Notes under the pieces: generated by a model
Told to the model about the DNA's origin: nothing
Databases searched by the model: none
The model's input: the letters and a program-made list of their open reading frames with translations, nothing else
Part shown: piece by piece, positions 4,726 to 29,093 of the stretch
Position numbering within the stretch: position 1 is the stretch's first letter
Layout of the letters: every line of letters starts with the position of its first letter
Position numbers and translations under genes: made by a program
NCBI RefSeq assembly: GCF_007748075.1
Contig: NZ_CP036280.1
Coordinates: forward strand, 2,850,001-2,882,000
Direction: 5' to 3'
Origin: Mucisphaera calidilacus
GTDB lineage: Bacteria > Planctomycetota > Phycisphaerae > Phycisphaerales > Phycisphaeraceae
Length of the DNA: 32,000 bases

Positions 4726-5634
4726 ATGCTCCCAACCGATCGTCGCAAAGCCGGCTTTACGCTGATCGAGCTTCTCGTCGTGATCTCGATCATCGCGCTG
4801 CTCATCGGCATCCTCCTCCCGGCACTCGGCGCGGCACGCAACACCGCACGCCAGGTGCAGTGCCTGTCCAATCAGCGCCAGGTCGCGGTCGCCTACAACC
4901 TCTACGCGATGGACTACCGCGACTCGATGATCATGCCCACCAGCCCCTTCACGAACGGTCCCTTCGTGTCTCCCAACTACGCCTACGGCTCAGCACAGGT
5001 CGACATCTATTCGTCGGACCGAGGCAATTTCAACACGGGAACCCCGGGCGGAACGTACATCTGGAACCTCGGCGGCGCATCGGGCAACGGCATGCTCTAC
5101 GAACTGAACTACATCACCGACCTCGAGTTCTTCTTCTGCCCCGACCCGCCGGTCACGGACCTGACCAACACATTCTTCGCCCCCGTGTCGGACAATACGC
5201 CCCGCCAGGTGGATTCCGTCGATGAAGACTTCGGCACGCAGAACTGGGGCAGCCTCGGCTTCGGCTCGGCGCGGGTGGGTGTCGGAACTTTCGGCAACCG
5301 CTCCGAGATGATCACCAACGACGATCGATCCCGAGCCGCGTCCGCCAATAACATCAGCGAACGCCAGGTCTACTTCGGGTCGCTGCGGTTCAGCGACAAC
5401 GCCAATCTCGCCGTCTCCTATTGCCCGATCCAGATCAGCGAGAACGAGTCGCTGCCGGGAGCTCACAACGACCGAGGCATGAACGCAACCTATGGCGACG
5501 GCAGCGGGACCTTCCTCGCCTTCGCCGACCCCTACACACGCGAAGACATCATCGACCTGGAAAAGTTCTACAGCTGGCTCGACTCACGCGGGGCCACGCT
5601 CAACAACTACTTCCCGAGCCTTGAGAACGACTGA
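4726..5634 (+). CDS. Prepilin-type N-terminal cleavage/methylation domain protein, DUF1559-like (planctomycete pseudopilin-like family)
   Basis: The N-terminus [45 protein letters not shown] has the G|FTLIE leader and a hydrophobic helix. The C-terminal [16 protein letters not shown] resembles the H-X9-DG motif but has a 10-residue spacer. The gene starts 39 nt after protein B. Confidence 0.85.
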
Positions 5635-5657
5635 TCGCGATCGCCAGAGGTGCAACG

Positions 5658-6917
5658 ATGTTCCGACACGCTGGCATGGGTATCACCGCCTGCCTCCTGA
5701 TCACCACCGCGTCCGACGGGGTCACCTTCCGCCATGACCGCAGCGTCCCCGACGCGGCGGGGCTCGCCGCCAGCCCGGCCTATGAGTCCGCCGGCGAGAT
5801 CATCATCAACTACTTCTTCGGGATCCCCGGCCAGGCCTCGGGCGTCCTCATCCACCCCGAGTGGCTGCTGACCGCGGCGCACCCCCTGACCGCCGTCTCC
5901 ATCCAGTCCATCGACCTCACCTTCACCGATCAGGACACCGGGCAGACCGTCACCGCCCAGGCCGAGGAGTGGATCCCCTACCCGCAGTTCAATCCGCTCG
6001 CGTCGATCTTCAATCTCGACATCGGCCTCGTGAAACTCACCGAACCGCTCGACAACATCACCCCCTCGCCGATCTACCGTGACGACGGCGGCGAACGCGA
6101 CCAGACCATCACCATCGTCGGCTACGGCAATCTGGGCAACGGGACCAGCGGCGGCGTCCTCGCGGCCGGCGGCACCGCCCACGCCGTCACCAACACGGTC
6201 GACGCCTTCGGCGGGGAACCCGCCGGGCTGTACAACCTCAACGCCTACGAGCCGAGCGTCATGTTCATGGACTTCGACCCGGCCCCGGGTGTCAGCGAAC
6301 TCAACCACACCGGCTCGGCGACGCCTCTCGATATGGAAGGCCTCAGCGCCTCGGGCGACTCAGGCGGCCCCGGCTTTATCGACGTCGACGGCGTGCCCCA
6401 CGTGGCAGGTGTCGTCTCCGTCGGTCTCTCCCGAGACAGCAGGTTCAGCGCCTACGGCGACCTCAGCGGATTGACGCGTGTCTCGGCCTTCACCGACTGG
6501 ATCGATGCCCACGTCCCACTCGGCCTGCCGGGTGACGTCGATGGCGACGGCGCACTGACCGCCGCGGACATCGACCTCATCACAGCGGGCTTTGGCAGCT
6601 CCGACCCCATCCTCGACCTGGATCAGAACGGCAGCGTCGGTGCCAGCGACATCGATGCCTGGCTGGCACTCGCAGGCAGCAAGCGTGGTGACGCCAACCT
6701 CGACACCGCCGTCGACCTACTCGACCTCTCGATCCTCGCGGCCCATTTCGACAGCACCGGCACGTGGGCCGATGGCGATTTCAACGGGGACACCAGCATC
6801 GATCTGCTCGATCTCTCATCCATGGCCAGCAACTTCAACACACCCGCCACCATCCCCGAGCCAGCCGCCGGACTGCTGCTTCTTGGCTCAATCGCGGTAA
6901 CGCCCCGTCGATCTTGA
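5658..6917 (+). CDS. Trypsin-like (S1) serine protease with four dockerin-like repeats and a PEP-CTERM anchor
   Basis: Catalytic triad contexts are WLLTAAHPL (His), DIGLVKL (Asp) and GDSGGPGF (Ser). Repeats: GDVDGDGALTAADIDLI, DLDQNGSVGASDIDAWL, GDANLDTAVDLLDLSILAAHF, GDFNGDTSIDLLDLSSMASNF. The protein ends IPEPAAGLLLLGSIAVTPRRS. AGAGG lies upstream of the ATG, 23 nt after the preceding gene. Confidence 0.85.
   Translation: MFRHAGMGITACLLITTASDGVTFRHDRSVPDAAGLAASPAYESAGEIIINYFFGIPGQASGVLIHPEWLLTAAHPLTAVSIQSIDLTFTDQDTGQTVTAQAEEWIPYPQFNPLASIFNLDIGLVKLTEPLDNITPSPIYRDDGGERDQTITIVGYGNLGNGTSGGVLAAGGTAHAVTNTVDAFGGEPAGLYNLNAYEPSVMFMDFDPAPGVSELNHTGSATPLDMEGLSASGDSGGPGFIDVDGVPHVAGVVSVGLSRDSRFSAYGDLSGLTRVSAFTDWIDAHVPLGLPGDVDGDGALTAADIDLITAGFGSSDPILDLDQNGSVGASDIDAWLALAGSKRGDANLDTAVDLLDLSILAAHFDSTGTWADGDFNGDTSIDLLDLSSMASNFNTPATIPEPAAGLLLLGSIAVTPRRS
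6531..6914 (+). repeat. Copy 2 of the dockerin-like + PEP-CTERM cassette
   Basis: See 4291..4683. Same order of four Asp-rich loops followed by PEP-CTERM. Confidence 0.6.
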
Positions 6918-11549: not shown

Positions 11550-12452
11550 TCATACCGAGATCGCGTTGAGCGGCATGATCTGCTGCTCGTACAAATCCAC
11601 ATCGGCTGGCTCAGCGAGATCAATCGGCAGACACACACCATGCGCATGATCCGAGGCCAGCACCAGAATCCGCCGACCCTCGCGGTACCAGCCCATCTCC
11701 GCCTTCTGATGACCCAGCAGGAACACCCGCGCGTCCCAGCAGGCCGCCAACCGGTCGGCCAACGCATCATCGTGTCGACGCCCCCACACCAGCAGGTGCG
11801 CCGAACCACCCGACGACAGATCATCCTCGCTGGGCACACGCTTGATCACATCCGGATCAAACGTGTCCAGCCGCCTCGGCCAGGGCAGACTGTGCGCTGC
11901 GAATAACCCGTTCGGTGCCTTGACCGCCAACAGCAGGCTCCGCAGATAACTCCGGGCCGCCTCGAGCACCTCGCCAGCCTGCCCGCCGTAGATCATCTCT
12001 GCCCCCAGTTCGAACGCCTCGGTGAGATCCGTCCCCGACTTGCTCACCGAATCCCCCAGCAACTGAGCCAGCTCGTGGTTCGACTGCAACACGTGCACCC
12101 GCCCGGGATAACGCGTCACCAAACGAGCGACACGGGCCAGCATCCGGATCGACAGATCACGACCGTTGACCAGGTTCGGGCCGTGTATCACCTCATGAAG
12201 GATCAAATGCGTATCGCTTTGCCGGTCAAGAGCCGAATATTTGATGATTCGCGCAAAATTCAGCGCATTGTCGTGCAGATCGCCCGTCATGATCAGCCGC
12301 CCGTGGTCGGGCAGGTGCACGGTTGCCCCGTAACGCGTCGGATTCTCGTTCAGCACCCCCGCCGCGTCCTCGAACACCTCGGCACAAGCGCCCGGGTCGC
12401 GGTCATCGAAATCTCCCAGGTGCTGCTGAATGGGGTCGGCGGTGTCGGGCAT
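11550..12452 (-). CDS. Divergent metallophosphoesterase (PPP/calcineurin-like fold)
   Basis: 300 aa. IMTGDLHDN matches the GDxH motif and LQSNHE matches the GNHE-like motif. The second motif (GDxxDR) is replaced by LILHEVIHGP, so the family assignment is tentative. Confidence 0.55.
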   Translation of the reverse strand: MPDTADPIQQHLGDFDDRDPGACAEVFEDAAGVLNENPTRYGATVHLPDHGRLIMTGDLHDNALNFARIIKYSALDRQSDTHLILHEVIHGPNLVNGRDLSIRMLARVARLVTRYPGRVHVLQSNHELAQLLGDSVSKSGTDLTEAFELGAEMIYGGQAGEVLEAARSYLRSLLLAVKAPNGLFAAHSLPWPRRLDTFDPDVIKRVPSEDDLSSGGSAHLLVWGRRHDDALADRLAACWDARVFLLGHQKAEMGWYREGRRILVLASDHAHGVCLPIDLAEPADVDLYEQQIMPLNAISV

Positions 12453-12483
12453 CCCGATAAGATGGGGGCTGCCGCCGGGTAAG

Positions 12484-12509
12484 GCAAACCAGCAAGTCGT
12501 TGCACCGTC
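12484..12509 (+). promoter_or_regulatory. Candidate ECF-type (autoregulated) promoter
   Basis: GCAAAC (12484-12489), a 16-nt spacer, then CGTC (12506-12509), 46 nt upstream of the sigma-factor ATG. This fits the generic ECF pattern AAC-N16/17-CGT. Confidence 0.3.
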
Positions 12510-12554
12510 TGCAATAACCCGGCAGCACCGACGTTCTACCGGCAGGCCCGACGC

Positions 12555-13169
12555 ATGAGACCCACACCCGACGCCCAGCCTGTCGATGATTGCCTGCGAC
12601 GCGCGTCGGCGGGTGACGACGGTGCGTGGCGTCAGATCGTCGAGACCTACAGCAGGCGAGTCTACGGGCTGCTCTACAAGCAGTGCCGCGACCGCGAACT
12701 CGCCGAGGAACTCACACAGGAGACGTTTGTCAAGATGGTGCGGGCCGTGACGAAATCAGATGGCTACCAGGAACGCGGACGCTTCGAGTCCTGGCTCTTC
12801 CGCATCGCCATGAACGGCCTGCGTGACGAGATGCGCCGCCGACAGCGACAAGCCGTTGGCCGAGGCAACAACCCGGCCGATGAAGCCGGCCCGGATCCGA
12901 TCGTCGCGCTCGCCGACACCAGCACCCCCGATCCGCTCGACAACATGACCCATCAGGAACAACTCGCGAGCCTCAGAGACTGCATGCAACGCCTCAACGA
13001 CGCGGACCGCGAGGTCCTGCACCTCCGGCACACGGCCGGCCTGAGCTTTCAGCAGATCGCCGAGGCACTCGAAAAACCGCTCGGCACCGTCCTGGCGCGA
13101 GCACACCGCGCCACGGGCAAACTACGCAAGATGATGACCGAAGGCCTCAACGAGGTAGATGCGGCATGA
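12555..13169 (+). CDS. ECF-family RNA polymerase sigma-70 factor
   Basis: Region 2: YSRRVYGLLYKQCRDRELAEELTQETFVKM and ESWLFRIAMNGLRDEMRRRQR. Region 4 helix-turn-helix: LHLRHTAGLSFQQIAEALEKPLGTVLARAHRATGKLRKMM. Confidence 0.9.
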   Translation: MRPTPDAQPVDDCLRRASAGDDGAWRQIVETYSRRVYGLLYKQCRDRELAEELTQETFVKMVRAVTKSDGYQERGRFESWLFRIAMNGLRDEMRRRQRQAVGRGNNPADEAGPDPIVALADTSTPDPLDNMTHQEQLASLRDCMQRLNDADREVLHLRHTAGLSFQQIAEALEKPLGTVLARAHRATGKLRKMMTEGLNEVDAA

Positions 13170-13675: not shown

Positions 13676-13682
13676 GTAATCC

Positions 13683-14420
13683 ATGATGACCACGACAACC
13701 CCAGCACGATTCCACCTCGTCGGCCCGCTCATCGCCCTGCTTGTGATCGCCACCACCGCCCCGCTGCTCGCACAGCCCGACGAAGGGCCCCAGCGACGCG
13801 ACGACCGCCCCATGCACAACCAGCGTGAGGGCCGAGGCGAAGGCCGGGGCATGCCCCGCTTCCTCGCGCCCCCGCCACGCGACGACCGCGGCGGGCCCTG
13901 GGAACGCATGTCCGCCGAGGAAGCCCGCGAGTTCATCGACGCCGCCATGGAGATCGTGGGCGAACTCGACCCCGATGCGGTTCAACGGATGCGCTACATG
14001 GCCGAGCGGAACCCGCACATGCTGCTGGAGATCATGCGCCGCCGTTTCCCCCGTCTCGAAGCCCTCATGGAACTGCGTGAGACCAACCCCGAACTCTTCC
14101 AACTCCGAATCCAGGACTTCAAGCTCAACGCACGCACCATGATGCAGGCCAAACGCATCCGCGAACTCGAAGAAAACCTCGCCGACCCCGCCGAGATCGA
14201 ACGACAGGAAACCGACCTTCGTGAAGCGATCGCCGAGCACTTCGAGGTAAGGCAGAAAATCCGTGAGATCGAGCTGAAAGACCTCGAGACCGAGATCGAA
14301 CGGCTCACCCGGCAAGTCACCAGGCTGCGCGAAGAGATCGATAGCCGCACCACCGACCCCGAGGGCATCATCGATGGCAGGCTCAACGACCTGCTCGACC
14401 GCGACCAGACCAACTTCTGA
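13683..14420 (+). CDS. Secreted, highly charged coiled-coil protein of unknown function (third gene of the ECF unit)
   Basis: Starts 7 nt after the anti-sigma stop. Signal peptide FHLVGPLIALLVIATTAPLLAQP. The rest is Arg/Glu-rich helical sequence (ELFQLRIQDFKLNARTMMQAKRIRELEENL..., IELKDLETEIERLTRQVTRLREEI). Confidence 0.6.
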   Translation: MMTTTTPARFHLVGPLIALLVIATTAPLLAQPDEGPQRRDDRPMHNQREGRGEGRGMPRFLAPPPRDDRGGPWERMSAEEAREFIDAAMEIVGELDPDAVQRMRYMAERNPHMLLEIMRRRFPRLEALMELRETNPELFQLRIQDFKLNARTMMQAKRIRELEENLADPAEIERQETDLREAIAEHFEVRQKIREIELKDLETEIERLTRQVTRLREEIDSRTTDPEGIIDGRLNDLLDRDQTNF

Positions 14421-14431
14421 ATCAGATCAAG

Positions 14432-15082
14432 TCAGACAGCCAGCACCGCATCGGCCGCCAGCAGCGGGTCGCGCAGCCCCGCGGCCTCGAACGACGCCTT
14501 GCGTCGTGCACAACCCTGACACGCACCGCAGGGCACACGCCCTTTCCGCAGGCACGACCACGCGTGCGTCCAGTCCACGCCCAGCTGCTCGCCGAGCCGC
14601 ACCACCTGCTCCGGCTTCAGATCGCTCAGAGGCGTCTCGATCGCCGGCGGTGACTTCGTATAGCTCCGTGCCAGACCGTCGATCATCAGAACCGTGTTGG
14701 TGACCGCGATCGACGCCTCCGCGTCCCCTCGGCCCGAGACCGGCCAGATCACGCGATCGGCTCCGTAGCTCAACGCGTGACTCATCGCGGCGATCAGCAG
14801 CTGCGGGGCCAGCAACGACTCGGGCGGCACCCGGTTCGGGTCCAAAGCCGCCGACCGCTCCAGCAGATGACGCATCTCAATCCGATGCACCCGCGCCGAC
14901 GCCAGGTCCTGAGCCTGCACCTTGGCGTGACGCGCCCGCAGGCCGACGTTCTCACGGCCGTCATCGGCGTGCAGCAGCGTCATCCGCAGCGTCGCCGTCT
15001 GAGCGTCGTTCTGGGCCAGCGTCGCAGCAACCAGCGAAGCAACCCCCCCGCCACAGAGAACAATCGTGTGCGCACGCTCCAT
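14432..15082 (-). CDS. QueC-like (7-cyano-7-deazaguanine synthase family) protein with a degenerate PP-loop
   Basis: Collinear with QueC. It keeps ETPL and the C-terminal Zn site WSCLRKGRVPCGACQGCARRK (C-x8-C-x2-C-x2-C). The N-terminal SGGxDS is CGGGVAS (IVLCGGGVASLVAATL). I chose the start at ATG 15082 (MERAHTIVL); a GTG at 15148 is the longest alternative. Confidence 0.65.
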   Translation of the reverse strand: MERAHTIVLCGGGVASLVAATLAQNDAQTATLRMTLLHADDGRENVGLRARHAKVQAQDLASARVHRIEMRHLLERSAALDPNRVPPESLLAPQLLIAAMSHALSYGADRVIWPVSGRGDAEASIAVTNTVLMIDGLARSYTKSPPAIETPLSDLKPEQVVRLGEQLGVDWTHAWSCLRKGRVPCGACQGCARRKASFEAAGLRDPLLAADAVLAV

Positions 15083-15175
15083 GCACCGATCATCGGCCAA
15101 CCGGGCTATCGGACCCGAAAACCAGCCCGCCTCCCTGCTAGGATGCACCGCACTTCAGACAGGAGACCCAAGCTG

Positions 15176-15963: not shown

Positions 15964-17214
15964 GTGGTGATGCGGGTGTATCGGAGTCGACATCGACAGC
16001 AGCATGATTCAGCGGCCCACGAGGCCGACCATCAGCCTGCTCCCATCCTTGAGAACGATCTGGTTCCCCAGGGCGAACCGGAGATGGTCGCCACGCAGGA
16101 CCAGCTCCGCGACCTCATTGACCATCTCGCGACCACCTCCTGCTTCGGCTACGACACCGAGTTCATCGGCGAGACCACCTTCTACCCCCGTATCTGCCTG
16201 ATCCAGATCGCGACGCAGGACAAGCTCTACCTGATCGACAGCCTCGCCGACATCGACCTCCTGCCATTCTGGAACCTGCTCGCCACACCCGGACCGGTGA
16301 AACTCGTTCATGCCGGCCGCCAGGACCTCGAGCCCGTCCCCCGCCTCACCGGCAAGCCGCCACGAACCCTCTACGACGTCCAGATCGCCGCCGGCTTCTG
16401 CGGGCTCGGCTACCCGCTCTCGCTCGGAAAACTCATCGAGGCCGTCACCGGCGCCGACCTCGGCCACAGCGTCAAGTTCAGCCAGTGGGATCGCCGACCC
16501 CTGACCGACAAACAAAAGCACTACGCCGCCAACGACGTCCGCTACCTGCCACTGGCCTACCTCGGGCTCAAAAAACGCATTGATCAACTCGGCCACACCG
16601 ACAAGGTCGCCGAGGACATGCTCGCCCTCGAAGAGGCGGATCGCTATCTCTTCGACCCCTTGAGCGGGCGCCTGCGCGGCGCCGGTGCCGGGCGTCTCAA
16701 CCGCCGTGGCCGCGCTCTCCTCGAACGGCTGCTCATCAAACGCTTCGAGATCGCCCGCGCCGTCAACCTGCCTCCACGCAGCCTCATGGGGGACGACGTC
16801 CTCGTCCGCCTCGCCGACCATCCACCCGCCGACACCGAAGCCCTCGCACGCATCAAGGGCATGCCCCGACCCCTGGCACGCGACAACGGCCACGAACTGA
16901 TCGCGGCCATCGAAGACGGCAAACGGGCACCCCTGCCCCCCGCACCCAGGCGGCCGGGCATCGACCCCGACGAGCACAAGGCGCGCATCGAAACCACCTG
17001 GTCCCGACTCCAGAAACACTGCGACGAGCGCTCCATCGACCCGGGCCTGCTCATCAGCAAACGCGACCTCTCGACGCTCCTGCTGCCCGAGTCCGACCGC
17101 CAGAGCCGCGACTACACCATCCCCACGGGCTGGAGACGCGACATACTCAACGAGTGCTGGCCCGACGACCACCCCGACATCACCCTCCCCGACCCGCCCG
17201 GAGCCGATCCGTGA
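15964..17214 (+). CDS. rnd: Ribonuclease D (DEDDy 3'-5' exonuclease + HRDC)
   Basis: Motifs: FGYDTEFIGETTFYPRICLIQIAT (exo I), VHAGRQDLE, HYAANDVRYL (exo III, DEDDy). An HRDC-like region follows. The start is uncertain: GTG 15964, ATG 15970, or ATG 16084 (MVATQDQL). Confidence 0.85.
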   Translation: MVMRVYRSRHRQQHDSAAHEADHQPAPILENDLVPQGEPEMVATQDQLRDLIDHLATTSCFGYDTEFIGETTFYPRICLIQIATQDKLYLIDSLADIDLLPFWNLLATPGPVKLVHAGRQDLEPVPRLTGKPPRTLYDVQIAAGFCGLGYPLSLGKLIEAVTGADLGHSVKFSQWDRRPLTDKQKHYAANDVRYLPLAYLGLKKRIDQLGHTDKVAEDMLALEEADRYLFDPLSGRLRGAGAGRLNRRGRALLERLLIKRFEIARAVNLPPRSLMGDDVLVRLADHPPADTEALARIKGMPRPLARDNGHELIAAIEDGKRAPLPPAPRRPGIDPDEHKARIETTWSRLQKHCDERSIDPGLLISKRDLSTLLLPESDRQSRDYTIPTGWRRDILNECWPDDHPDITLPDPPGADP

Positions 17215-18782
17215 TCCAAGCCGTCTACCAACTGAGCGGCTCCCGTACCGAGGCCGCTTCCCTCGCCGACAAGGTGGCTCTCGAACAGTCGCTTGAAGTC
17301 CCGCGCAGCGTCGCGGAAGCGGCGGGACTACCCGCGGGCACCATCGGCGAGGTCGTCTCCCTCGAACCGGCCCCCGACAGCGCCTGGCTCGCCACCGTCC
17401 ACTACGCCACCTGGCTCGCCAGCCGACGCCCCTCCCAACTGCTCAATCTCCTTGGCGGCAACTGCTCCATGCTCCCAGGCGTCCGGCTCGTCGACGTCAC
17501 GCTGCCCGATGAGCTCACACAGCACTTCGCCGGCCCACGCTACGGCATCCCCGGGCTGCGCGGCACGCTCGGCATCGCCAAGAGACCCCTGCTCTGCTCA
17601 GCCATCAAGCCCCGAGGCGTCTCCAACGAACGACTCGCCGAGGTCGCCGGCGCGATGGCACTCGGCGGATGCGACCTGATCAAGGACGACCACAACCTCG
17701 TCGACGAAGACGCCCAAGCCTTTGCCACACGCATCAGCACCATCCAGCGTGCGGTCCGCGACGCTCAGCAGCAGACCGGCCGCCCCTGCCTCTACCTGCC
17801 CAACCTCGCTGCCGGACCCACCGACTGGGCCGACTACCTCAAGGCACTGGAGAATGCGGGCATCCAGGGCGTGCTGCTCGCGCCGATGCTCATGGGTTTT
17901 GACGCCGTGGCCCACCTGCGCACGAGCACCGACCTGCTGCTCATGGCCCACCCCACCCTCGCCGGCGGGCCGCTGCTCGGCACCGACCACGGCATCGCCC
18001 CCGCCGTCCTGCTCGGAACACTCATGCGCCTGGTGGGCATCGACGCCTCGGTCTTTCCCAACGCCGGCGGACGCTTCGCCTTCACCCAGAAGACCTGCAT
18101 GGACCTCGCCCACGCCCTGCGTCGCGACGACGGCCCCGGCCCCGGCGCCTGGCCGACACCCGCTGGCGGGATGTCGGTCGACCGCATCGACGAGCAGGCC
18201 GAGATCTACGGCCCCGAGACCTGCTGGCTCGTCGGCGGCGCGATGCTCCAGCACCCCGATGGCATCGAGCGCGGTGCCGCCGAGCTGCACGAAGCACTCG
18301 TCGCTCGCTTCGGCGACGAACGCACCGACATCTCCACCTCACAGCACGTTTCTGCTTGTGAAGTCCCCATGCCCGACGGCATCAGCACCGCCGTGCACAC
18401 CGTCCTACGACGACTCGAATCCGGATGGGAAGACCGCCACGCCGTGGACTACAAGGCCGACGACGCCCTGCCCTTCCAAGGCGTCAAACGCTACGAGCTC
18501 ATGGGCAAGGCCGATGAGCCAATGCACTTTGACGTGCGCTACTTCGAACTCGAACCGGGTGGCCACACCAGCCGCGAGAAGCACCGCCACGTCCACGCCA
18601 TCATCGCCGCCGAGGGCCGTGGCGAAGTCGAGATCGACGGCCAGACCAGCCCGCTCGATGCGCACGACCTCGCCTACATCCCGCCGCTCGCCGTCCACCA
18701 GATCCGCAACCGGGACGACAACACCCCCTTCGGCTTCTACTGCATCGTTGACCGCGACCGCGACAGGCCCCAGGCACCCTGA
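17211..18782 (+). CDS. RuBisCO-like protein (form IV RLP) fused in frame to a C-terminal cupin domain
   Basis: I chose GTG 17211 (VIQAVYQL...), which overlaps the rnd stop (GTGA) and is preceded by GGAG. RLP motifs: PLLCSAIKPRGVS and GGCDLIKDDHNL. Cupin motifs: GGHTSREKHRHVHAIIAAEGRGEV and YIPPLAVHQIRN. There is no stop codon between the two parts. Confidence 0.8.
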   Translation: MIQAVYQLSGSRTEAASLADKVALEQSLEVPRSVAEAAGLPAGTIGEVVSLEPAPDSAWLATVHYATWLASRRPSQLLNLLGGNCSMLPGVRLVDVTLPDELTQHFAGPRYGIPGLRGTLGIAKRPLLCSAIKPRGVSNERLAEVAGAMALGGCDLIKDDHNLVDEDAQAFATRISTIQRAVRDAQQQTGRPCLYLPNLAAGPTDWADYLKALENAGIQGVLLAPMLMGFDAVAHLRTSTDLLLMAHPTLAGGPLLGTDHGIAPAVLLGTLMRLVGIDASVFPNAGGRFAFTQKTCMDLAHALRRDDGPGPGAWPTPAGGMSVDRIDEQAEIYGPETCWLVGGAMLQHPDGIERGAAELHEALVARFGDERTDISTSQHVSACEVPMPDGISTAVHTVLRRLESGWEDRHAVDYKADDALPFQGVKRYELMGKADEPMHFDVRYFELEPGGHTSREKHRHVHAIIAAEGRGEVEIDGQTSPLDAHDLAYIPPLAVHQIRNRDDNTPFGFYCIVDRDRDRPQAP

Positions 18783-18790
18783 TCAACCGG

Positions 18791-21514
18791 TCACCGAATC
18801 GGCTCCACCACCGTGTAAAGAACGTCGGGCGAAAGCGTCACCACCCCGTCTCGGCTGCTGCGCTCGCGGACGACCCGCCCGTTCGGGTCAAGATCGGTCA
18901 GCCGCAAACGGTTCGTCCCCAGCCGAAGCGTCACACGCCCGCGGATCTCGCGGAACTGCACGGGCATCGTCCCCACCGACTCGATCCGTAACCCGCCGTC
19001 CTCGTCGCGCTCGGTTTTCCAGTTGTAGTTGGTCTCCTCGCTGATCGCCTGAATCAGGATGCGCTCGCTCTCGACCAGCGGCCGACCGTCCAGCGGCACG
19101 ACAAGACACGACCCGTACGCGTTGTCGATATCGAACACCGCCAACGGCGTCCGGATCAGCCCCGCACCCATCAACGTCCCGCAGACGCCCTGAGCCCTCG
19201 GCGTATCGATCACAGCGACACGTTCACGCGGGCTGACAAGCAACTCGCCATTGATCGACGTGATCCAGCCGTCACGCGGGCGTTGACGCCTGAACTCATC
19301 GGCCAGCACCAGACGTGACGCCTCGGCACCCGGCACAATCCGCGCACGCCCGAGCAGCACCGCCATCTCCATCAGAGACGATGGGTCCATCGGGTCGTTC
19401 GCTCGCGGCCCCACCGCACGCAGCGCATCGAGGTCTGCCGGCCGCGCGAGTCGCGAGCCCCGAAAAGCGAGCAGGTCTTCACGACTCAGGTACTCGGTCA
19501 CCACCAGCGGCGCCTCACGCACCAACCCCTGGCGGAAGATCAGCGACGCCGCCGGGAACTGACCCACCACCGCGGGCGAGAACGCGGAGAACTTGTCCAG
19601 CTGCCGCTCCCAGTCAAGCGTGCCGATCGAGAAAAAGACCACCGCATCCAACCCCGACGCCCTGCCGTAGCCCGCAGCAAGAAAGACCGATTCAGCCCGT
19701 GCGCGATTCGGGAACGGGTAGCCATACTCCGAGATCATGTGCGGTGCGTCGCCGTACTCCGGACGGGCAACCGCCGGTATCGACTCGCCGATGATCGATC
19801 GATCCTCGTAGACATGCCCGGTCCGCACCGAATAACTCGATCCCTCGCCCTCGTGACGACCGCTGAAATAGGCGTGGCGGTCCATCGTTCCGGTTACGGC
19901 ATTGCTCAGCTTCTCCACCGGCATCAGCACCGCGTTGTCCGCCGTCGTCCAGTTCGACGCGATCACACTGCAACGAACGCCCAGGTCCTCCCGCAGGTAA
20001 CGCGCCGTCTCGCGGTAGAACGCCGACTGCAGATCGAGAAAAAACGCGAGCTGATCCGACGCCCGCTGCGGATGACGCGACTGACGCGCCCACTCCTGGT
20101 CCGTCAGAAAACCCGCCGCGTACAGGCCCACCCGGGCGCGGGACAGGTCGTCGCCACGCACGTCGCCCGGCTGAATCCCCCATGCATCGAATGCTCCGCG
20201 TATCGAGCCGTAACGACGCACCAGCCACCGGCCGAACGCCTCCTCGTACTTGTGCGTCGTCGACGCCGGAACGTTGTCGTACGGGCTGAACGTCCAGAAC
20301 AGCAGGCTGTCCTCGTTCTGGATCTCCACCGCAGCTACCGCCGGATTCTGCGCCAGCGTCCGACCCGTGCGCGGGCTGGGCGTCGTCAGCAGCGCACGCA
20401 TCCAGGCACGATGCTCCCGCTGGAGCGTGCGGTCGACGAACAGCAACGCAAAAGGCGGCTTCTCCGCGTCGTACCCCTCGAACCGATCGTCCTCGTGCAG
20501 CCGCAACCACAGCGGGAAGTAGAACGACAGCACGCTGTAGATGCCCTCATCGGCCAGCGACTCCACCCCGAGGATCGTCCGCTCCAGCCGCTCCTCGTCG
20601 ATGTCCGACGGGTGCTCCCGCCAGATCGGCTTGTGAAACCGCGCGAGGTTGACGCCCAGCTTCGCCAGACGCCGCGACAGATAAGCACGGCTCGTGTCGT
20701 CGGGCGGCTCGATCCCGAGATTCACACCCCAGAAACGTGCCTCCTCGCCCGTCTGGTCGTAAACAAAACCCGACCCCTGCGGGATCACAAAACCCTGATC
20801 ACCCGCGCGATCGTGATTGATGCGACGAAGATCGAGGTCCGTCGGTGCGAAGTCATCCGCTCCCACCTCGAACGGGACGTATCCCGGGTTCGACCGCCCC
20901 GTCACCTGGCCCGGACGCAGTTTGCCGTTGGGGACGAAAGGCGAACGCGTCAGCAGCCAGCAGTCGAACGCCGCCGGCCCCGCGTCCGGCAGCATCTCGA
21001 CCCAGAGCACAGCATCCCCCGCCGGCAAATCAACCTCGCCGAGATACACCCAGTTCGCCACAACGTGCGTCCGCAGCGTCACCGAATCGGCCAGCGTGAT
21101 CTCCCGGCCGCACGTCCGCCACGCGTCACGCCCAAAACGCCAGCGAAACGGCCCGTGCTTCCAGAACTTGCGCACCCACAGCTGATGCACGCCCGGCGTC
21201 GTCACGCGAACCCGGTACGACACCCGCGCCCCCGCCGCCCGATCGGTCTGCAGCCAGTCTCCGCCCGAGAGCACGTCACGCTCCGCACTGTCTTCCGGCT
21301 CAAAAGCCGAACTCGCCGGGAACGTGTGACGCGTCGGATGCTCGCCCTCCCACCACACGTAATCGCGTGACTGAGCCGACGCCGTCGACGACATCAGCAG
21401 TACGATCAGAGCAACCACCCACGCCCGCCTAGGCCCGCTGCATCTCGTCCCACGAGACAAGGTGGTCGCGATAAAGCTGAGCGTAGTGCCCGTTCTGTCC
21501 GAGAAGCTCTTCAT
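18791..21514 (-). CDS. Secreted clan GH-A-like glycoside hydrolase (TIM barrel) with an unassigned N-terminal beta-rich domain
   Basis: Up to 907 aa. Signal peptide RRAWVVALIVLLMSSTASA. FWGVNLG and LARFHK lead into a candidate acid/base AVEIQNEDSLLFW and a candidate nucleophile HMISEYGYP. The start is ambiguous. ATG 21514 has a GGAGAG SD-like motif but overlaps the upstream ABC gene by 86 nt. Alternatives are TTG 21460 and GTG 21418. Confidence 0.6.
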   Translation of the reverse strand: MKSFSDRTGTTLSFIATTLSRGTRCSGPRRAWVVALIVLLMSSTASAQSRDYVWWEGEHPTRHTFPASSAFEPEDSAERDVLSGGDWLQTDRAAGARVSYRVRVTTPGVHQLWVRKFWKHGPFRWRFGRDAWRTCGREITLADSVTLRTHVVANWVYLGEVDLPAGDAVLWVEMLPDAGPAAFDCWLLTRSPFVPNGKLRPGQVTGRSNPGYVPFEVGADDFAPTDLDLRRINHDRAGDQGFVIPQGSGFVYDQTGEEARFWGVNLGIEPPDDTSRAYLSRRLAKLGVNLARFHKPIWREHPSDIDEERLERTILGVESLADEGIYSVLSFYFPLWLRLHEDDRFEGYDAEKPPFALLFVDRTLQREHRAWMRALLTTPSPRTGRTLAQNPAVAAVEIQNEDSLLFWTFSPYDNVPASTTHKYEEAFGRWLVRRYGSIRGAFDAWGIQPGDVRGDDLSRARVGLYAAGFLTDQEWARQSRHPQRASDQLAFFLDLQSAFYRETARYLREDLGVRCSVIASNWTTADNAVLMPVEKLSNAVTGTMDRHAYFSGRHEGEGSSYSVRTGHVYEDRSIIGESIPAVARPEYGDAPHMISEYGYPFPNRARAESVFLAAGYGRASGLDAVVFFSIGTLDWERQLDKFSAFSPAVVGQFPAASLIFRQGLVREAPLVVTEYLSREDLLAFRGSRLARPADLDALRAVGPRANDPMDPSSLMEMAVLLGRARIVPGAEASRLVLADEFRRQRPRDGWITSINGELLVSPRERVAVIDTPRAQGVCGTLMGAGLIRTPLAVFDIDNAYGSCLVVPLDGRPLVESERILIQAISEETNYNWKTERDEDGGLRIESVGTMPVQFREIRGRVTLRLGTNRLRLTDLDPNGRVVRERSSRDGVVTLSPDVLYTVVEPIR

Positions 21515-25308: not shown

Positions 25309-27066
25309 TCACCGACGACGCAGCAGAGCTGGCACCAGCAGCAACAGACCCGCGGCCGGTTCGGGAGCCGGCGCCGGAACGTCCGCCCCATACCCGAAGC
25401 CCGACGCGAGCAGGCTCAAATCCAGCAGGTCAACCGCGCCGTCGCCATTGAAATCGCCATCCGACCACGTCGCCCCCTCGGCCAGATCGAAGTTTGAAGC
25501 CAGCACGCTCAGATCAAGCAGGTCCACCGCGAAATCGAGATTCGCATCACCCAGCTCCGAGCCATAGAGGTCACGCACCCAGAACGAGATGTCGTCCGCG
25601 TCGGCGTCCAGATCCCCATCGAGGTCGTAGGCCGGGTCGCCAAGGTTCAACCCCAGCAGATCCAGATCTCGCGCGTCCACCAACGCGTTCAGATCGAAGT
25701 CACCCGCCACGTCACCCAACGCGACGTCGGTGATCGTCAGCGTCGCCAGCGGATCCCCCAGCACCATGTTCTGCCACGAGAGATAAGGTATCCCCGCCCA
25801 CGCCGCCTCGACCCATGTATAGGCGTTGTCCGGGTTCAGCGTGCCCGAGATCGCCATCCGCAGGAACAGGTAGTAGTTCTCGGCGATACCGAACGTGAAC
25901 GGCTCGTAGACCGTGCCCGTGCCGAACGTCCCGCCCGCAGCGATCCAGTCCGCCAGCTGCCCCTGGTCGTTGTACCCGTTGGTGATCCCGTTGAAATTGC
26001 GGGCGCTGTAGCTCTCCAGCCCGTTGTAGATCGCCCCGTCGACCAACTGACCCGACCACGTCTCGATAAAACCCCTGTTGTCCGACGACCCGCCGTTGTG
26101 GTTGCCGCCGTAGGTAAAGAGTGCCGCGACCGGCCCCTCCACCACACGCGTGCCAACCGTCCCCTCAAACGCATCCGTCTCCTCGCCGATCAGGAAGTCC
26201 GGGCCGTTGTCATCGAACTCGATCGCGGGATAGAAGAACGGGAAAGGCGCTGCACCGACTCGGTCGTAGTCGCCCGGGCCCGCACCCTCATCATCGAGCG
26301 TGCCCGCCGCGTTCTCGTCCAGCACCACCGTGTAATGCTCCGAGTTGAAGACCGGGTTCTGCGCCCGGTCGATCATCCCCTTGACGTCATCCACCGTGTA
26401 CCCGTCCAGCCGCGCCGTCAGCAGGATGTCCCCGCCGTCCGCCCGCTGAGTCGTGTCCGCGTCAAACATGGTGTGGAACGACCCACCCCACGTGAAATCC
26501 TTCGCGTCCGTCACGCCCGTGCGGTCAAACTCCATCAGACGCGAGGACGACCCGGTCCCGAAGTAAGGATTGATCACCGCGTTGTCGGCGTACGTCCTGC
26601 CGCCTTCCTGAACCGTGCCCGTGTCCTGCCAGAGCAGCGTCAACTCCGAGTCAACCGATGCGTAAGTCGCTTCGCCATTGTCAAACAGCGTCGCGGCCGT
26701 CGGAGGCAAGCCGCCCGCACCCGGGCTGTTCATGTCATCGATGCGATGCGGGACACCCTTGGTCAGCGTGATGACCGAAACCTGCTCCTCCAGCCCCTGC
26801 ATCGTCAGGTAGTCGCGGATCGGGTCACGCAGCTTGTCGGTGTAATCCGTGTAGCTCAGCGTGCTCCCGGTCACCGTCGGATTGTTGATATCAAAACCCA
26901 GCACACCCGGACGCGACGCGAGGTAGTAATCGTAAACCGCCTGGCTGTCGGCATCCGTGGAGTTGTAGACCACCAGCACGTTCTCGGCCTCAAGACCCCA
27001 CGCGGACGAACCCCAGCCCAATGACACCGCCGCGAGTGAACAGGCCCAGAGTTTCGTTCGACGCAT
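25309..27066 (-). CDS. Large secreted protein of unknown function with dockerin-like repeats and a PEP-CTERM anchor (protein E, 585 aa)
   Basis: I chose ATG 27066 (MRRTKLWACSLAAVSLGWGSSAWG, a signal peptide). The ~440-aa N-terminal domain (NVLVVYNSTDADSQAVYDYY..., ASVDSELTLLW..., MVLGDPLA) reminds me of the TIGR03790-type uncharacterised family; my recollection of that family is weak. The C-terminus has GDANLDFAVDLLDLSVLASNF, GDFNGDGAVDLLDLSLLASGF, then APEPAAGLLLLVPALLRRR. Confidence 0.8.
   Translation of the reverse strand: MRRTKLWACSLAAVSLGWGSSAWGLEAENVLVVYNSTDADSQAVYDYYLASRPGVLGFDINNPTVTGSTLSYTDYTDKLRDPIRDYLTMQGLEEQVSVITLTKGVPHRIDDMNSPGAGGLPPTAATLFDNGEATYASVDSELTLLWQDTGTVQEGGRTYADNAVINPYFGTGSSSRLMEFDRTGVTDAKDFTWGGSFHTMFDADTTQRADGGDILLTARLDGYTVDDVKGMIDRAQNPVFNSEHYTVVLDENAAGTLDDEGAGPGDYDRVGAAPFPFFYPAIEFDDNGPDFLIGEETDAFEGTVGTRVVEGPVAALFTYGGNHNGGSSDNRGFIETWSGQLVDGAIYNGLESYSARNFNGITNGYNDQGQLADWIAAGGTFGTGTVYEPFTFGIAENYYLFLRMAISGTLNPDNAYTWVEAAWAGIPYLSWQNMVLGDPLATLTITDVALGDVAGDFDLNALVDARDLDLLGLNLGDPAYDLDGDLDADADDISFWVRDLYGSELGDANLDFAVDLLDLSVLASNFDLAEGATWSDGDFNGDGAVDLLDLSLLASGFGYGADVPAPAPEPAAGLLLLVPALLRRR
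25312..25716 (-). repeat. Copy 3 of the dockerin-like + PEP-CTERM cassette
   Basis: See 4291..4683. It encodes GDVAGDFDLNALVDARDLDLL, DLDGDLDADADDISFWV, GDANLDFAVDLLDLSVLASNF, GDFNGDGAVDLLDLSLLASGF and the PEP-CTERM. Confidence 0.6.
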
Positions 27067-27252
27067 CAGTGGCTCTCGTGGTGTGGCACGGACTTCCGGC
27101 TCCAGCGGGGAACGCTCCCTGAGAGAGAACGCACCCCACACACGAATTATGCACGATAGATCGCCCCACAGCCCCAGATTGATCGAAAACTCAAGGACCG
27201 GGGTCGGATTAACGGGTTCATACCGAAGGGTCCGACGACGCCAGACGGCACA

Positions 27253-28631: not shown

Positions 28632-28760
28632 GACATCAACCGGTGTTAGCCCTGTACGCCGTGTATGATCAGGCAACAGCTTCCAAACACGTGGCCATCC
28701 GACGGCCCCAGCAGACAGAACCTCCCCAACGACACGGGGGAAACATGAAGGAACCCAATC

Positions 28761-29093
28761 ATGGCAAGTGAAGCCGTTCTCGAACTCACCGACGCGAACT
28801 TCGACACCGAAGTCGTCAACAGCGATCAGCCCGTCCTCGTCGACTTCTGGGCGGAGTGGTGCCAGCCCTGCCGCATGCTCGGCCCGACCATCGACGAGCT
28901 CGCCACCGAATACCAGGGCAAGGTCAAGGTCGGCAAAGTCGACACCGACAACAACCGCGATACCGCTGTCAAGTATGGCATCCAGTCCATCCCGACGGTC
29001 ATGCTCTTCCAGAACGGCGAGGTCGTGAAGAAATTCGTCGGCCTCCAGCCCAAGCCGGTCTTCAGCGAGGAACTCGACAAGGTCTCCGGCTGA
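28761..29093 (+). CDS. trxA: Thioredoxin (active site WCQPC)
   Basis: 110 aa. PVLVDFWAEWCQPCRMLGP, SIPTVMLFQNGE (cis-Pro loop); AAGGAA lies 7 nt upstream of the ATG. Confidence 0.9.
   Translation: MASEAVLELTDANFDTEVVNSDQPVLVDFWAEWCQPCRMLGPTIDELATEYQGKVKVGKVDTDNNRDTAVKYGIQSIPTVMLFQNGEVVKKFVGLQPKPVFSEELDKVSG

Follow-up and report, generated by a model that had tools for sequence, protein, structure and literature searches.

Within the window, the 32-kb stretch of Mucisphaera calidilacus DNA analysed here, we found a complete gene at 17211..18782 on the forward strand that joins a RuBisCO-like protein (RLP) to a cupin. The single uninterrupted frame described in the first-pass annotation is indeed open for 523 codons plus a stop, and the product is 100% identical to P0001, the deposited protein of this species, whose annotation is generic. 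[quoted passage not shown] Homologues beginning MIEAVYQL agree with the GTG start, which overlaps the stop (GTGA) of an upstream RNase D gene (rnd; DNA_pol_A_exo1 and HRDC domains) at 15964..17214 (+). The two genes are probably co-transcribed, and an RNase D gene also neighbors the fusion gene in Mucisphaera sp. (locus L016); rnd is context only and has no functional link to the fusion gene. Pfam calls both expected domains where they had been predicted, RuBisCO_large (PF00016) at aa 113–367 (6e-19) and Cupin_2 (PF07883) at aa 444–512 (1.8e-11). Third-position GC is 0.85 across the gene, dips solely in the linker between the domains (0.70–0.76), and, followed along the gene, gives no sign of a frame change at 18300–18420.

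The RLP domain (aa 1 to about 370; 17211..18320 (+); pLDDT >90) is best read, from its residues and its predicted structure, as a putative 5-methylthioribulose-1-phosphate (MTRu-1-P) 1,3-isomerase of the DeepYkr (RLP1) type, which consists of short proteins of about 365–380 aa. Its best sequence match in the PDB is 3qfw, the RLP P0160 of R. palustris BisB18 (3.7e-65 over aa 4–357), ahead of MtnW (2.6e-41), and phmmer bit scores descend from 224 for 3qfw through 145 (MtnW), 110 (form III), 97 (Photo) and 77 (NonPhoto) to at most 72 (form I). Foldseek with the AF2 model ranks the clades in the same order, 3qfw being again the best match (TM 0.92, rmsd 2.1 Å) and the others lying at about 0.8 and 3.5 Å. 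By scores the domain is thus nearer to RLP1 than to MtnW, Photo, NonPhoto or forms I–III, a placement that with respect to the Photo, NonPhoto and form III clades is a ranking rather than a full superfamily tree; the neighbor-joining (NJ) tree covered the RLP family with MtnW as outgroup.

The active site fits this placement. In IKPRG (aa 132–136; 17604..17618 (+)) K133, which we take to be the counterpart of RuBisCO K175 by numbering from the known TIKPK motif, is retained and R135 replaces K177; in KDDHN (aa 158–162; 17682..17696 (+)) K158 and D160 correspond to the carbamylated Lys201 and to Asp203, and H161 replaces Glu204. These are the retentions and substitutions that had been noted from the letters alone, together with the suggestion that IKDDH is the pattern of R. 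rubrum-type RLPs, and 3qfw (LKPQG and KDDHG) does share DLIKDDH with the window protein. KDDH occurs in 190 of 248 RLP-only relatives, one of which bears the JGI name 'S-methyl-5-thioribulose 1-phosphate isomerase', and position 161 is His or Gln throughout the fusion family. We rejected a true carboxylase of forms I–III, against which the first-pass annotation had argued, since Arg stands in place of K177, His in place of E204 and Pro (AHP) at the R295 position; the form III model gives 130 bits against a cut-off of 497. An MtnW enolase identity was likewise rejected, again in keeping with the earlier view, on NCBIfam scores (177.6 bits against a cut-off of 409, and 132.1 against 513.6) and on KDDH in place of KDDE; the RLP1-type P0160 also falls below the MtnW cut-offs. 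MtnW/YkrW, which in Bacillus and Geobacillus acts as a 2,3-diketo-5-methylthiopentyl-1-phosphate enolase, comes second among the PDB and NCBIfam matches of the window protein, shares with it the RLP fold and the KDD Mg site, and serves in the salvage of MTA-derived sulfur, but it carries KDDE where the fusions carry KDDH or KDDQ, runs about 40 aa longer and is not paired with a cupin.

The cupin domain (about aa 401–523; 18411..18779 (+); pLDDT about 90–98) is of the Rru_A2000 type and is a predicted 1-methylthioxylulose-5-phosphate (MTXu-5-P) methylsulfurylase. It aligns end to end with Rru_A2000 (35% identity, 5e-24), and its PDB matches, all aligned to the last residue, are 3ibm (9e-30), 3kgz (3e-20) and 3jzv, which is Rru_A2000 itself (2.5e-19), so the proposed alignment to the R. 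rubrum methylsulfurylase extends over the whole length. The nearest cupin outside the Rru_A2000 group is TM1459 (9e-7), and more than 12 orders of magnitude separate this full-length homology to Rru_A2000/RPA2170 from other Cupin_2 proteins. The presumed metal-binding signature E456-K-H458-R-H460-V-H462 (E-x-H-x-H-x-H, all four residues invariant; 18576..18596 (+)) has the counterpart ERHQHAH in Rru_A2000; VHQIR (aa 495–499; 18693..18707 (+)), with an invariant H496, forms part of cupin motif 2; and the C-terminal signature GFYC...RDRDRP (18732..18770 (+)), in which C511, R517, D518 and P520 are invariant, corresponds to GFLC...ERDKP. The window cupin and Rru_A2000 thus have ExHxHxH, HQxR, GFxC and RDxP in common, residues that are presumed to be catalytic. 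The E-x-H-x-H-x-H signature was found in 140 of 141 fusions and in all 36 of 36 standalone cupins, close examples of which JGI names 'S-methyl-1-thioxylulose 5-phosphate methylthiotransferase'. Among the motifs first proposed for this half, HRHVH (within EKHRHVH, aa 456–462) and motif 2 (VHQIR) hold, but the glutamate assigned to motif 1 does not: at least 90% of family members have Arg at the E468 position, and the signature instead runs E456/H458/H460/H462...H496.

Between the two domains lies a linker (about aa 371–400; 18321..18410 (+)) that is predicted to be flexible (pLDDT 49–66) and contains a SACE motif with Cys382 (18351..18362 (+)). A linker cysteine is present in 116 of 141 fusions, among which linker length ranges from 17 to 223 aa (median 29), and some standalone cupins have Cys-containing tails (ASACEW or GAC(F/H)ICE) C-terminal to the cupin domain.

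Both halves have characterized counterparts in separate genes. In R. rubrum, the RLP Rru_A1998 and the cupin Rru_A2000 are experimentally an MTRu-1-P 1,3-isomerase and an MTXu-5-P methylsulfurylase, the latter with glutathione as thiol co-substrate, and in R. palustris RPA2169/RPA2170 were shown genetically to be the isomerase and the methylsulfurylase. The arrangement of P0160 and its cupin in R. palustris BisB18 (locus L015) is that of RPA2169/RPA2170, with the RLP gene (5001–6107) followed by the Cupin_2 gene (6094–6594) in the order of the fusion and with a 14-nt overlap. Adjacency of RLP and cupin genes was confirmed solely in R. palustris; the nearest standalone RLPs and cupins were not adjacent pairs in the six contexts sampled. 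The window protein resembles the purple bacterial pair in its protein types, in the order RLP then cupin, in KDDH and the four cupin signatures, in its best PDB matches (3qfw and 3jzv/3kgz), and in having mtnP and mtnA encoded elsewhere. It differs in being a single protein whose halves are joined by a flexible linker, about 30 aa long and usually with a conserved Cys (SACE), where the purple bacteria have two genes, in being only 35–37% identical, and in its hosts, which are Planctomycetota and many other phyla rather than purple Alphaproteobacteria.

We therefore consider it likely, judging from sequence, that the fusion is a bifunctional enzyme of the MTA-isoprenoid shunt, which would make methanethiol and an isoprenoid precursor from a by-product of polyamine formation. 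The reading draws on the architecture, the homology of each half to the characterized enzyme type, the conservation of both active sites, the repeated occurrence of the fusion and its link to polyamine genes in a few lineages, all of which were observed; what the enzyme acts on and makes, which thiol it uses and whether channelling occurs are inferred. The RLP half, with an Mg2+ site made of a carbamylatable K158, D160 and H161, would convert 5-methylthio-D-ribulose 1-phosphate to 1-methylthio-D-xylulose 5-phosphate by 1,3-proton transfer; isomerases of the RLP1 type also yield MTRu-5-P. The cupin half, with its metal site (E456/H458/H460/H462/H496) and the invariant Cys511, would then remove the methylthio group in a thiol-dependent step to form DXP.

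Alternatively, one could envision the same architecture and chemistry acting on another physiological substrate, such as a different 5-substituted ribulose-1-phosphate or a related ketose phosphate, with the cupin removing or transforming another substituent, so that the product would be something other than DXP, or the pathway something other than MTA salvage. The RLP shares only 37% and the cupin only 35% identity with the characterized enzymes, distances at which RLPs are known to differ in function, and this counts against the shunt assignment; the KDDH and KDDQ subgroups may also differ functionally. Relatives with other partners were found as well: P0116 is an IMPase-RLP fusion, P0400 joins an RLP to Transketolase_N, and at locus L009 a standalone RLP gene overlaps an IMPase gene, and the family may therefore serve more than one pathway. 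Against this, the residues common to Rru_A2000 and the fused cupins are all invariant, including the Cys, and a thiol-dependent cupin step would, we infer, be sensible solely with a thioether substrate. In the NJ tree of RLPs, moreover, the fusions and the characterized R. palustris RLP1 clade fall in one family, with an unsupported backbone, in which proteins with and without the cupin are intermixed, sister pairs being supported at 96% and 89%. This intermixing lends no support to a single origin of the fusion, and the backbone bootstraps are too low for counting events; gain or loss of the fusion appears to have been recurrent.

The genomic neighborhoods bear on the same alternative. No mtnP, mtnA or mtnK lies within the 32-kb window, as had been noted at first, and most fusion loci lack MTA-pathway neighbors and have uninformative surroundings. 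We found no conserved operon with mtnA or mtnP in the window, in four distant fusion loci, or in 81 loci compared by all-against-all clustering of flanking ORFs, and PF01008 and PF01048 were absent among 149 immediate neighbors in 80 loci searched in bulk with Pfam. By locus tags, R. rubrum and R. palustris likewise encode mtnA and mtnP elsewhere than next door, so that absence of these genes is the rule there too. Spermidine synthase yields MTA. In two KSB1 genomes the order speD-speE-fusion-DinB/MST thiol transferase occurs on a single strand, an arrangement that suggests a link between the fusion gene and this MTA-making reaction; in a Phycisphaeraceae MAG speE is 1.6 kb from the fusion, and in Sumerlaeota a spermine-synthase-like gene is close to it. 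Over the 81 loci the speD/speE link thus shows in 3 lineages, where roughly 0.3 would be expected by chance, and it is absent in the window. The linkage in KSB1 and Phycisphaeraceae speaks tentatively against a different substrate, which we regard as unlikely.

It could also be supposed that one half only is catalytic and that the cupin (or the RLP) is a ligand-sensing or oligomerization module, given that Cupin_2 domains are often sensors, that weak AraC_binding matches occur, and that both activities are predictions. However, among the 113 fusions in the conservation alignment, which are about 40% identical overall, the catalytic-looking residues of both halves are invariant: K133, K158, D159, D160 and H247 in the RLP, along with N162 of the KDDHN motif, and E456, H458, H460, H462, H496 and C511 in the cupin. 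The latter domain belongs specifically to the Rru_A2000 enzyme type, with the wide score gap to other cupins given above, and Pfam calls no DNA-binding domain in the fusion protein, so we consider a one-sided function very improbable.

That the fusion is an artefact, two adjacent genes having been joined through a frameshift in sequencing, a missing stop or an assembly error, is effectively refuted: the 14-nt overlap of the R. palustris pair means that one indel could fuse such genes, but the identical protein is annotated on a 3.49-Mb contig, codon bias is unbroken through the junction, relatives from independently assembled genomes (75%, 67% and 66% identical) keep the continuous frame and the linker motif, and the architecture recurs in at least 141 independent fused proteins from many phyla, among them complete genomes and strains in culture (ZRK32, Planctopirus hydrillae). 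Nor is the fusion unique to this assembly, which the first-pass annotation had named as a refutation: more than 110 clusters at 90% identity share the RLP-cupin architecture. The best 80 genome matches, drawn from about a dozen phyla, all have the fusion at full length, and 28 of the 150 nearest representatives at 50% identity are fused.

Extending the bifunctional shunt assignment, one could speculate that the fusion is more than a tether and that the linker Cys is a swinging thiol carried by the protein itself, accepting the methylthio group at the cupin site; the protein-S-S-CH3 so formed would then be reduced by a thioredoxin or a DinB-type thiol transferase. The methylsulfurylase would on this account be glutathione-independent in phyla without glutathione and, with the speD-speE link, would form a self-contained MTA-to-DXP module, widely used, including by anammox bacteria and KSB1, and possibly a significant source of DXP or methanethiol. 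We offer this as a conjecture that is improbable in its entirety.

To our knowledge, the MTA-isoprenoid shunt has been demonstrated in two purple Alphaproteobacteria only. What is new here is the single-polypeptide form of a known two-enzyme system; we found no description of an RLP-cupin fusion in the literature searched, and journals beyond that search might hold one. Its recurrence supplies independent evidence from genomes for joint action of the two activities, and the fusion could serve as a single-gene marker that widens the range in which the pathway is predicted to Planctomycetota (including anammox bacteria), KSB1, Lysobacterales, Desulfuromonadales, Nitrospiraceae, Sumerlaeota and others. 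All of them would be possible unrecognized sources of methanethiol and of Dxs-independent DXP, and the gene would be a compact part for engineering an MTA-to-DXP route as well as a natural system for testing substrate channelling and the role of the linker cysteine.

Comparable fusions are known from other pathways. In CPR bacteria, a form III-c RuBisCO is fused to ribose-1,5-bisphosphate isomerase, and the fusion served to argue for membership in the pathway (Jaffe et al., bioRxiv 10.1101/386292); there too a RuBisCO-superfamily protein is joined to the enzyme of an adjacent step, but it is a true carboxylase with another partner, which acts upstream, and the pathway is AMP salvage. The MtnBD fusion of Tetrahymena joins consecutive enzymes of methionine salvage (PMC3698126) and resembles the present one as a consecutive-step fusion that includes a cupin-fold domain (MtnD), whereas its folds and reactions (dehydratase/dioxygenase) are unrelated, its pathway is the canonical oxygen-dependent one and its host is a eukaryote.

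The RuBisCO-like protein (RLP) and cupin halves are encoded, as the first-pass annotation had described, in one uninterrupted frame of 523 codons plus stop (window 17211–18782, + strand), and we consider that this frame probably specifies a bifunctional enzyme of the MTA-isoprenoid shunt. The gene follows GATase and RNase D genes; its start agrees with homologue N-termini (MIEAVYQL...) and is a GTG whose last bases overlap the TGA stop of the RNase D gene (GTGA). GC3 is 0.85 gene-wide, with codon bias typical for a 65% GC genome and unbroken across the supposed junction, a drop to 0.70–0.76 being confined to the linker. Pfam recovers both of the domains that had been read from the sequence, RuBisCO_large at aa 113–367 (6e-19) and Cupin_2 at aa 444–512 (1.8e-11), and the motifs quoted in the first-pass annotation all lie where it placed them. 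Its reading of cupin motif 1 stands for HRHVH but not for the Glu at E468, where ≥90% of the family has Arg; the acidic position that is conserved is E456. A sequence 100% identical to this protein is already public as P0001 (Mucisphaera calidilacus; Planctomycetota, Phycisphaerae), labeled at NCBI [quoted passage not shown]

The RLP half appears to be of the R. rubrum type, as had been proposed from its motifs, rather than an MtnW, the RLP enolase of methionine salvage. Its best PDB sequence match is 3qfw (3.7e-65, aa 4–357; 37% identity over 350 aa by BLASTP), with MtnW enolases (2.6e-41), form III RuBisCO (1.5e-30), Photo-clade RLPs (7e-27), and form I all ranking far behind, and 3qfw, "Rubisco-like protein from Rhodopseudomonas palustris," is also the best Foldseek match (TM 0.92, rmsd 2.1 Å, vs. 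TM ∼0.8 and 3.5 Å for MtnW structures) of a confident AlphaFold2 model built on a 113-sequence alignment (mean pLDDT 93.2). The two proteins share the diagnostic motifs DLIKDDH and (I/L)KP(R/Q)G, having KDDH where MtnW has KDDE; in RuBisCO numbering, K175, K201, and D203 are retained, K177 is lost, and E204 is replaced by His. The fusion protein and P0160, the R. palustris BisB18 protein identical in sequence to 3qfw, match the MtnW NCBIfam model at 177.6 and 164.6 bits, well short of its cut-off of 409, and NCBIfam has no model for their RLP1-type clade, which accounts for the generic public annotation. In BisB18 a Cupin_2 gene begins 14 nt before the RLP gene ends. The two form the rlp1/cupin pair, known in strain CGA009 as RPA2169/RPA2170 and shown by genetics and metabolite analysis to act as 5-methylthioribulose-1-phosphate (MTRu-1-P) 1,3-isomerase (DeepYkr clade) and 1-methylthioxylulose-5-phosphate (MTXu-5-P) methylsulfurylase (Miller et al., PMC5893883). 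Three cupins of known structure, 3ibm (9e-30), 3kgz (3e-20), and 3jzv (2.5e-19), align with the cupin half (residues ∼400–523) through to its final residue, the next PDB cupin being at 9e-7; the signatures shared are S-x-E-x-H-x-H-x-H, H-Q-x-R, G-F-x-C, and R-D-x-P. The proposed kinship with the R. rubrum methylsulfurylase is thereby borne out: 3jzv (35% identity) is Rru_A2000, the MTXu-5-P methylsulfurylase, for which glutathione is the in vivo thiol (PMC4334135). KEGG-based JGI annotation gives several of the nearest standalone cupins the name "S-methyl-1-thioxylulose 5-phosphate methylthiotransferase."

Going by homology, the RLP domain, which presumably dimerizes and has Mg2+ held by carbamylated K158, D160, and H161, would isomerize MTRu-1-P to MTXu-5-P, and the cupin domain, with a metal held by its E/H cluster and an invariant C511, would pass the methylthio group to a thiol, releasing DXP. 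From established knowledge of the pathway (PMC5893883, PMC4334135), DXP would then enter the MEP pathway and the methylthio adduct would yield methanethiol, open to reassimilation into methionine. Channeling between the domains is possible, and the predicted disorder of the ∼30-residue linker (pLDDT 49–66) suggests that it may tether the domains rather than form a fixed tunnel. In most fusions the linker contains a conserved S-A-C-E-(L/M)-P motif (Cys382 in the window protein), with a Cys in 116/141 fusions, and 11/36 standalone cupins have a Cys in the C-terminal tail, in motifs such as ...RDRPQVVGGxASACEWPGP and GACFICE; the tail motifs ASACEW... and GAC(F/H)ICE of P0154–P0158, P0126–P0131, P0141, and P0151 resemble the SACE motif of the fusion linker, and the R. 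palustris cupin has no such tail Cys. A mobile cysteine thus flanks the cupin barrel on one side or the other, and one could speculate that it serves as an intramolecular thiol acceptor in place of glutathione. A thioredoxin, the kind of reductant that such a mechanism would need, is encoded ∼10 kb downstream of the fusion (28749–29093, +), probably by coincidence.

The main alternative, that the chemistry is as described but acts on another substrate, we regard as rather unlikely. The 32-kb window has no methionine-salvage genes, in agreement with the first-pass remark that no mtnP, mtnA, or mtnK lies nearby; the neighborhoods of four distant fusion loci are unrelated to one another, all-against-all clustering of flanking ORFs found no partner in more than 9 of 81 loci, and neither PF01008 (MtnA) nor PF01048 (MtnP) is among the 25 most frequent Pfam families of 149 immediate neighbors, so neither recurs beside fusions. 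This does not count against the shunt assignment, because locus tags place mtnP and mtnA far from the rlp/cupin pair in R. rubrum and R. palustris as well (PMC5893883, PMC4334135). In two KSB1 genomes, genes for S-adenosylmethionine decarboxylase, spermidine synthase, the fusion, and a DinB_2/mycothiol-S-transferase-like protein follow one another on one strand (L018 8407–12127), the last directly downstream of the fusion (L018 11570–12127; L019 3800–4339); where glutathione is lacking, this protein is a candidate for dealing with the methylthio-thiol adduct. Spermidine synthase, whose reaction generates MTA, is also encoded 1.6 kb downstream of the fusion in a Phycisphaeraceae MAG (L037), and a spermine-synthase-like gene lies near it in a Sumerlaeota MAG (L052). 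With one speE per 4-Mb genome and 1.22 Mb examined, a rough estimate gives ∼0.3 co-occurrences by chance vs. three independent lineages observed, a suggestive but not conclusive link of the fusion to polyamine genes and MTA production. Within the window, a 907-aa ORF (18791–21514, −) with a hydrophobic N-terminal segment and strong codon bias (GC3 0.81) converges on the fusion with 8 nt between stops and has no Pfam match at E ≤ 1e-3; ORFs of 647, 401, and 246 codons (25309–27252, −; 11550–12755, −; 13680–14420, +) have coding-type codon bias and no Pfam match. The QueC-like ORF at 14432–15148 (−) matches PF06508 at 2e-13 (50.7 bits), weak for a full-length match, and may be a divergent QueC paralogue rather than a canonical 7-cyano-7-deazaguanine synthase.

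The first homologue search gave 113 clusters at 90% identity (510–630 aa), all but one with both Pfam domains recorded. Across these 113 fusions, only ∼40–45% identical to the window protein, invariant residues occur in both the RLP (K133, P134, G136, K158, D159, D160, N162, H247, P248, G287, R288, F289, P317, G319, G320) and the cupin (W406, Y414, R443, Y444, F445, S454, E456, H458, H460, H462, H496, G508, F509, C511, R517, D518, P520); both halves are therefore under catalytic-type constraint, which argues against decay, or a purely regulatory role, of either. Among 425 collected proteins, 141 contain both halves by HMMs built from the first-search homologues. An exhaustive search of the RLP half alone against 1.84 billion cluster representatives gave 244 at E ≤ 1e-30, the best 150 comprising 28 fused and 122 RLP-only proteins, and when one genome was scanned for each GTDB species, 497 matched stretches were confirmed to encode a relative. 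The best 80 of the 497 each cover essentially the whole fusion protein and include Planctomycetota (Mucisphaera, Phycisphaeraceae, Planctopirus hydrillae JC280, Schlesneria, strain ZRK32 with a complete genome, and the anammox groups Scalindua and Brocadiaceae), KSB1, Lysobacterales and Rhodanobacteraceae, Desulfuromonadales and Geothermobacter, Nitrospiraceae, Sumerlaeota, Hydrogenedentota, Chloroflexota, Firestonebacteria, Chitinispirillaceae, and one Bacteroidota MAG. Full-length recurrence across so many lineages excludes a frameshift or assembly artifact. Both activities and their pairing were already known (Erb et al. 2012; Warlick et al. 2012; both through citation in later papers), and the fusion overturns nothing; it is, as anticipated, solid Rosetta-stone confirmation of RLP/cupin coupling, a good enzymology target, and a useful single-gene marker by which the predicted range of the shunt becomes much wider. 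A full-text literature search, with key subscription papers outside its reach, found no description of an RLP–cupin fusion. Among Dxs-lacking genomes, a published survey lists Dialister, Veillonella, and Rhodothermus marinus with both shunt enzymes, and Chloracidobacterium and Thermodesulfovibrio with the cupin alone (PMC10663253, Supplementary Table S2).

In a neighbor-joining tree built from the RLP barrel of 153 sequences (288 columns, 100 bootstraps, rooted with an MtnW outgroup), whose backbone is unsupported, fused and unfused proteins interleave throughout one KDD[H/Q] family, to which the RLP1 clade of R. palustris, Rhodomicrobium, and Magnetospirillum belongs. Mixed fused/unfused sister groups are supported (P0342/P0367, 96%; P0282 with P0114 and P0115, 89%), and P0114 is verifiably standalone, a convergent beta-lactamase gene coming next after its own; fusion or fission has therefore occurred more than once within one family. 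The R. palustris arrangement, with the same gene order and its short overlap, shows how easily fused and separate forms interconvert. A subclade with 91% bootstrap has enlarged architectures: P0412 (781 aa) is an RLP with two tandem cupin domains, and P0372 (773 aa), P0377 (785 aa), and P0390 (705 aa) have 100–220-aa inserts between RLP and cupin and C-terminal extensions without a Pfam match. Elsewhere, P0116 (726 aa) fuses an inositol-monophosphatase-family domain (PF00459) to an RLP, and in L009 (5223–7182) a standalone RLP gene (P0119) shares 17 nt with the PF00459 gene upstream of it, suggesting that RLPs of this family are coupled to a sugar-phosphate phosphatase in some lineages and to a cupin in others. 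In P0400 (730 aa), a lone representative that may be a fragment, an RLP of this family is followed by a Transketolase_N/DXP_synthase_N-like thiamine-diphosphate domain (1.1e-19/7e-7), an intriguing architecture given that the RLP is predicted to make a xylulose-5-phosphate derivative and that the pathway ends at DXP.
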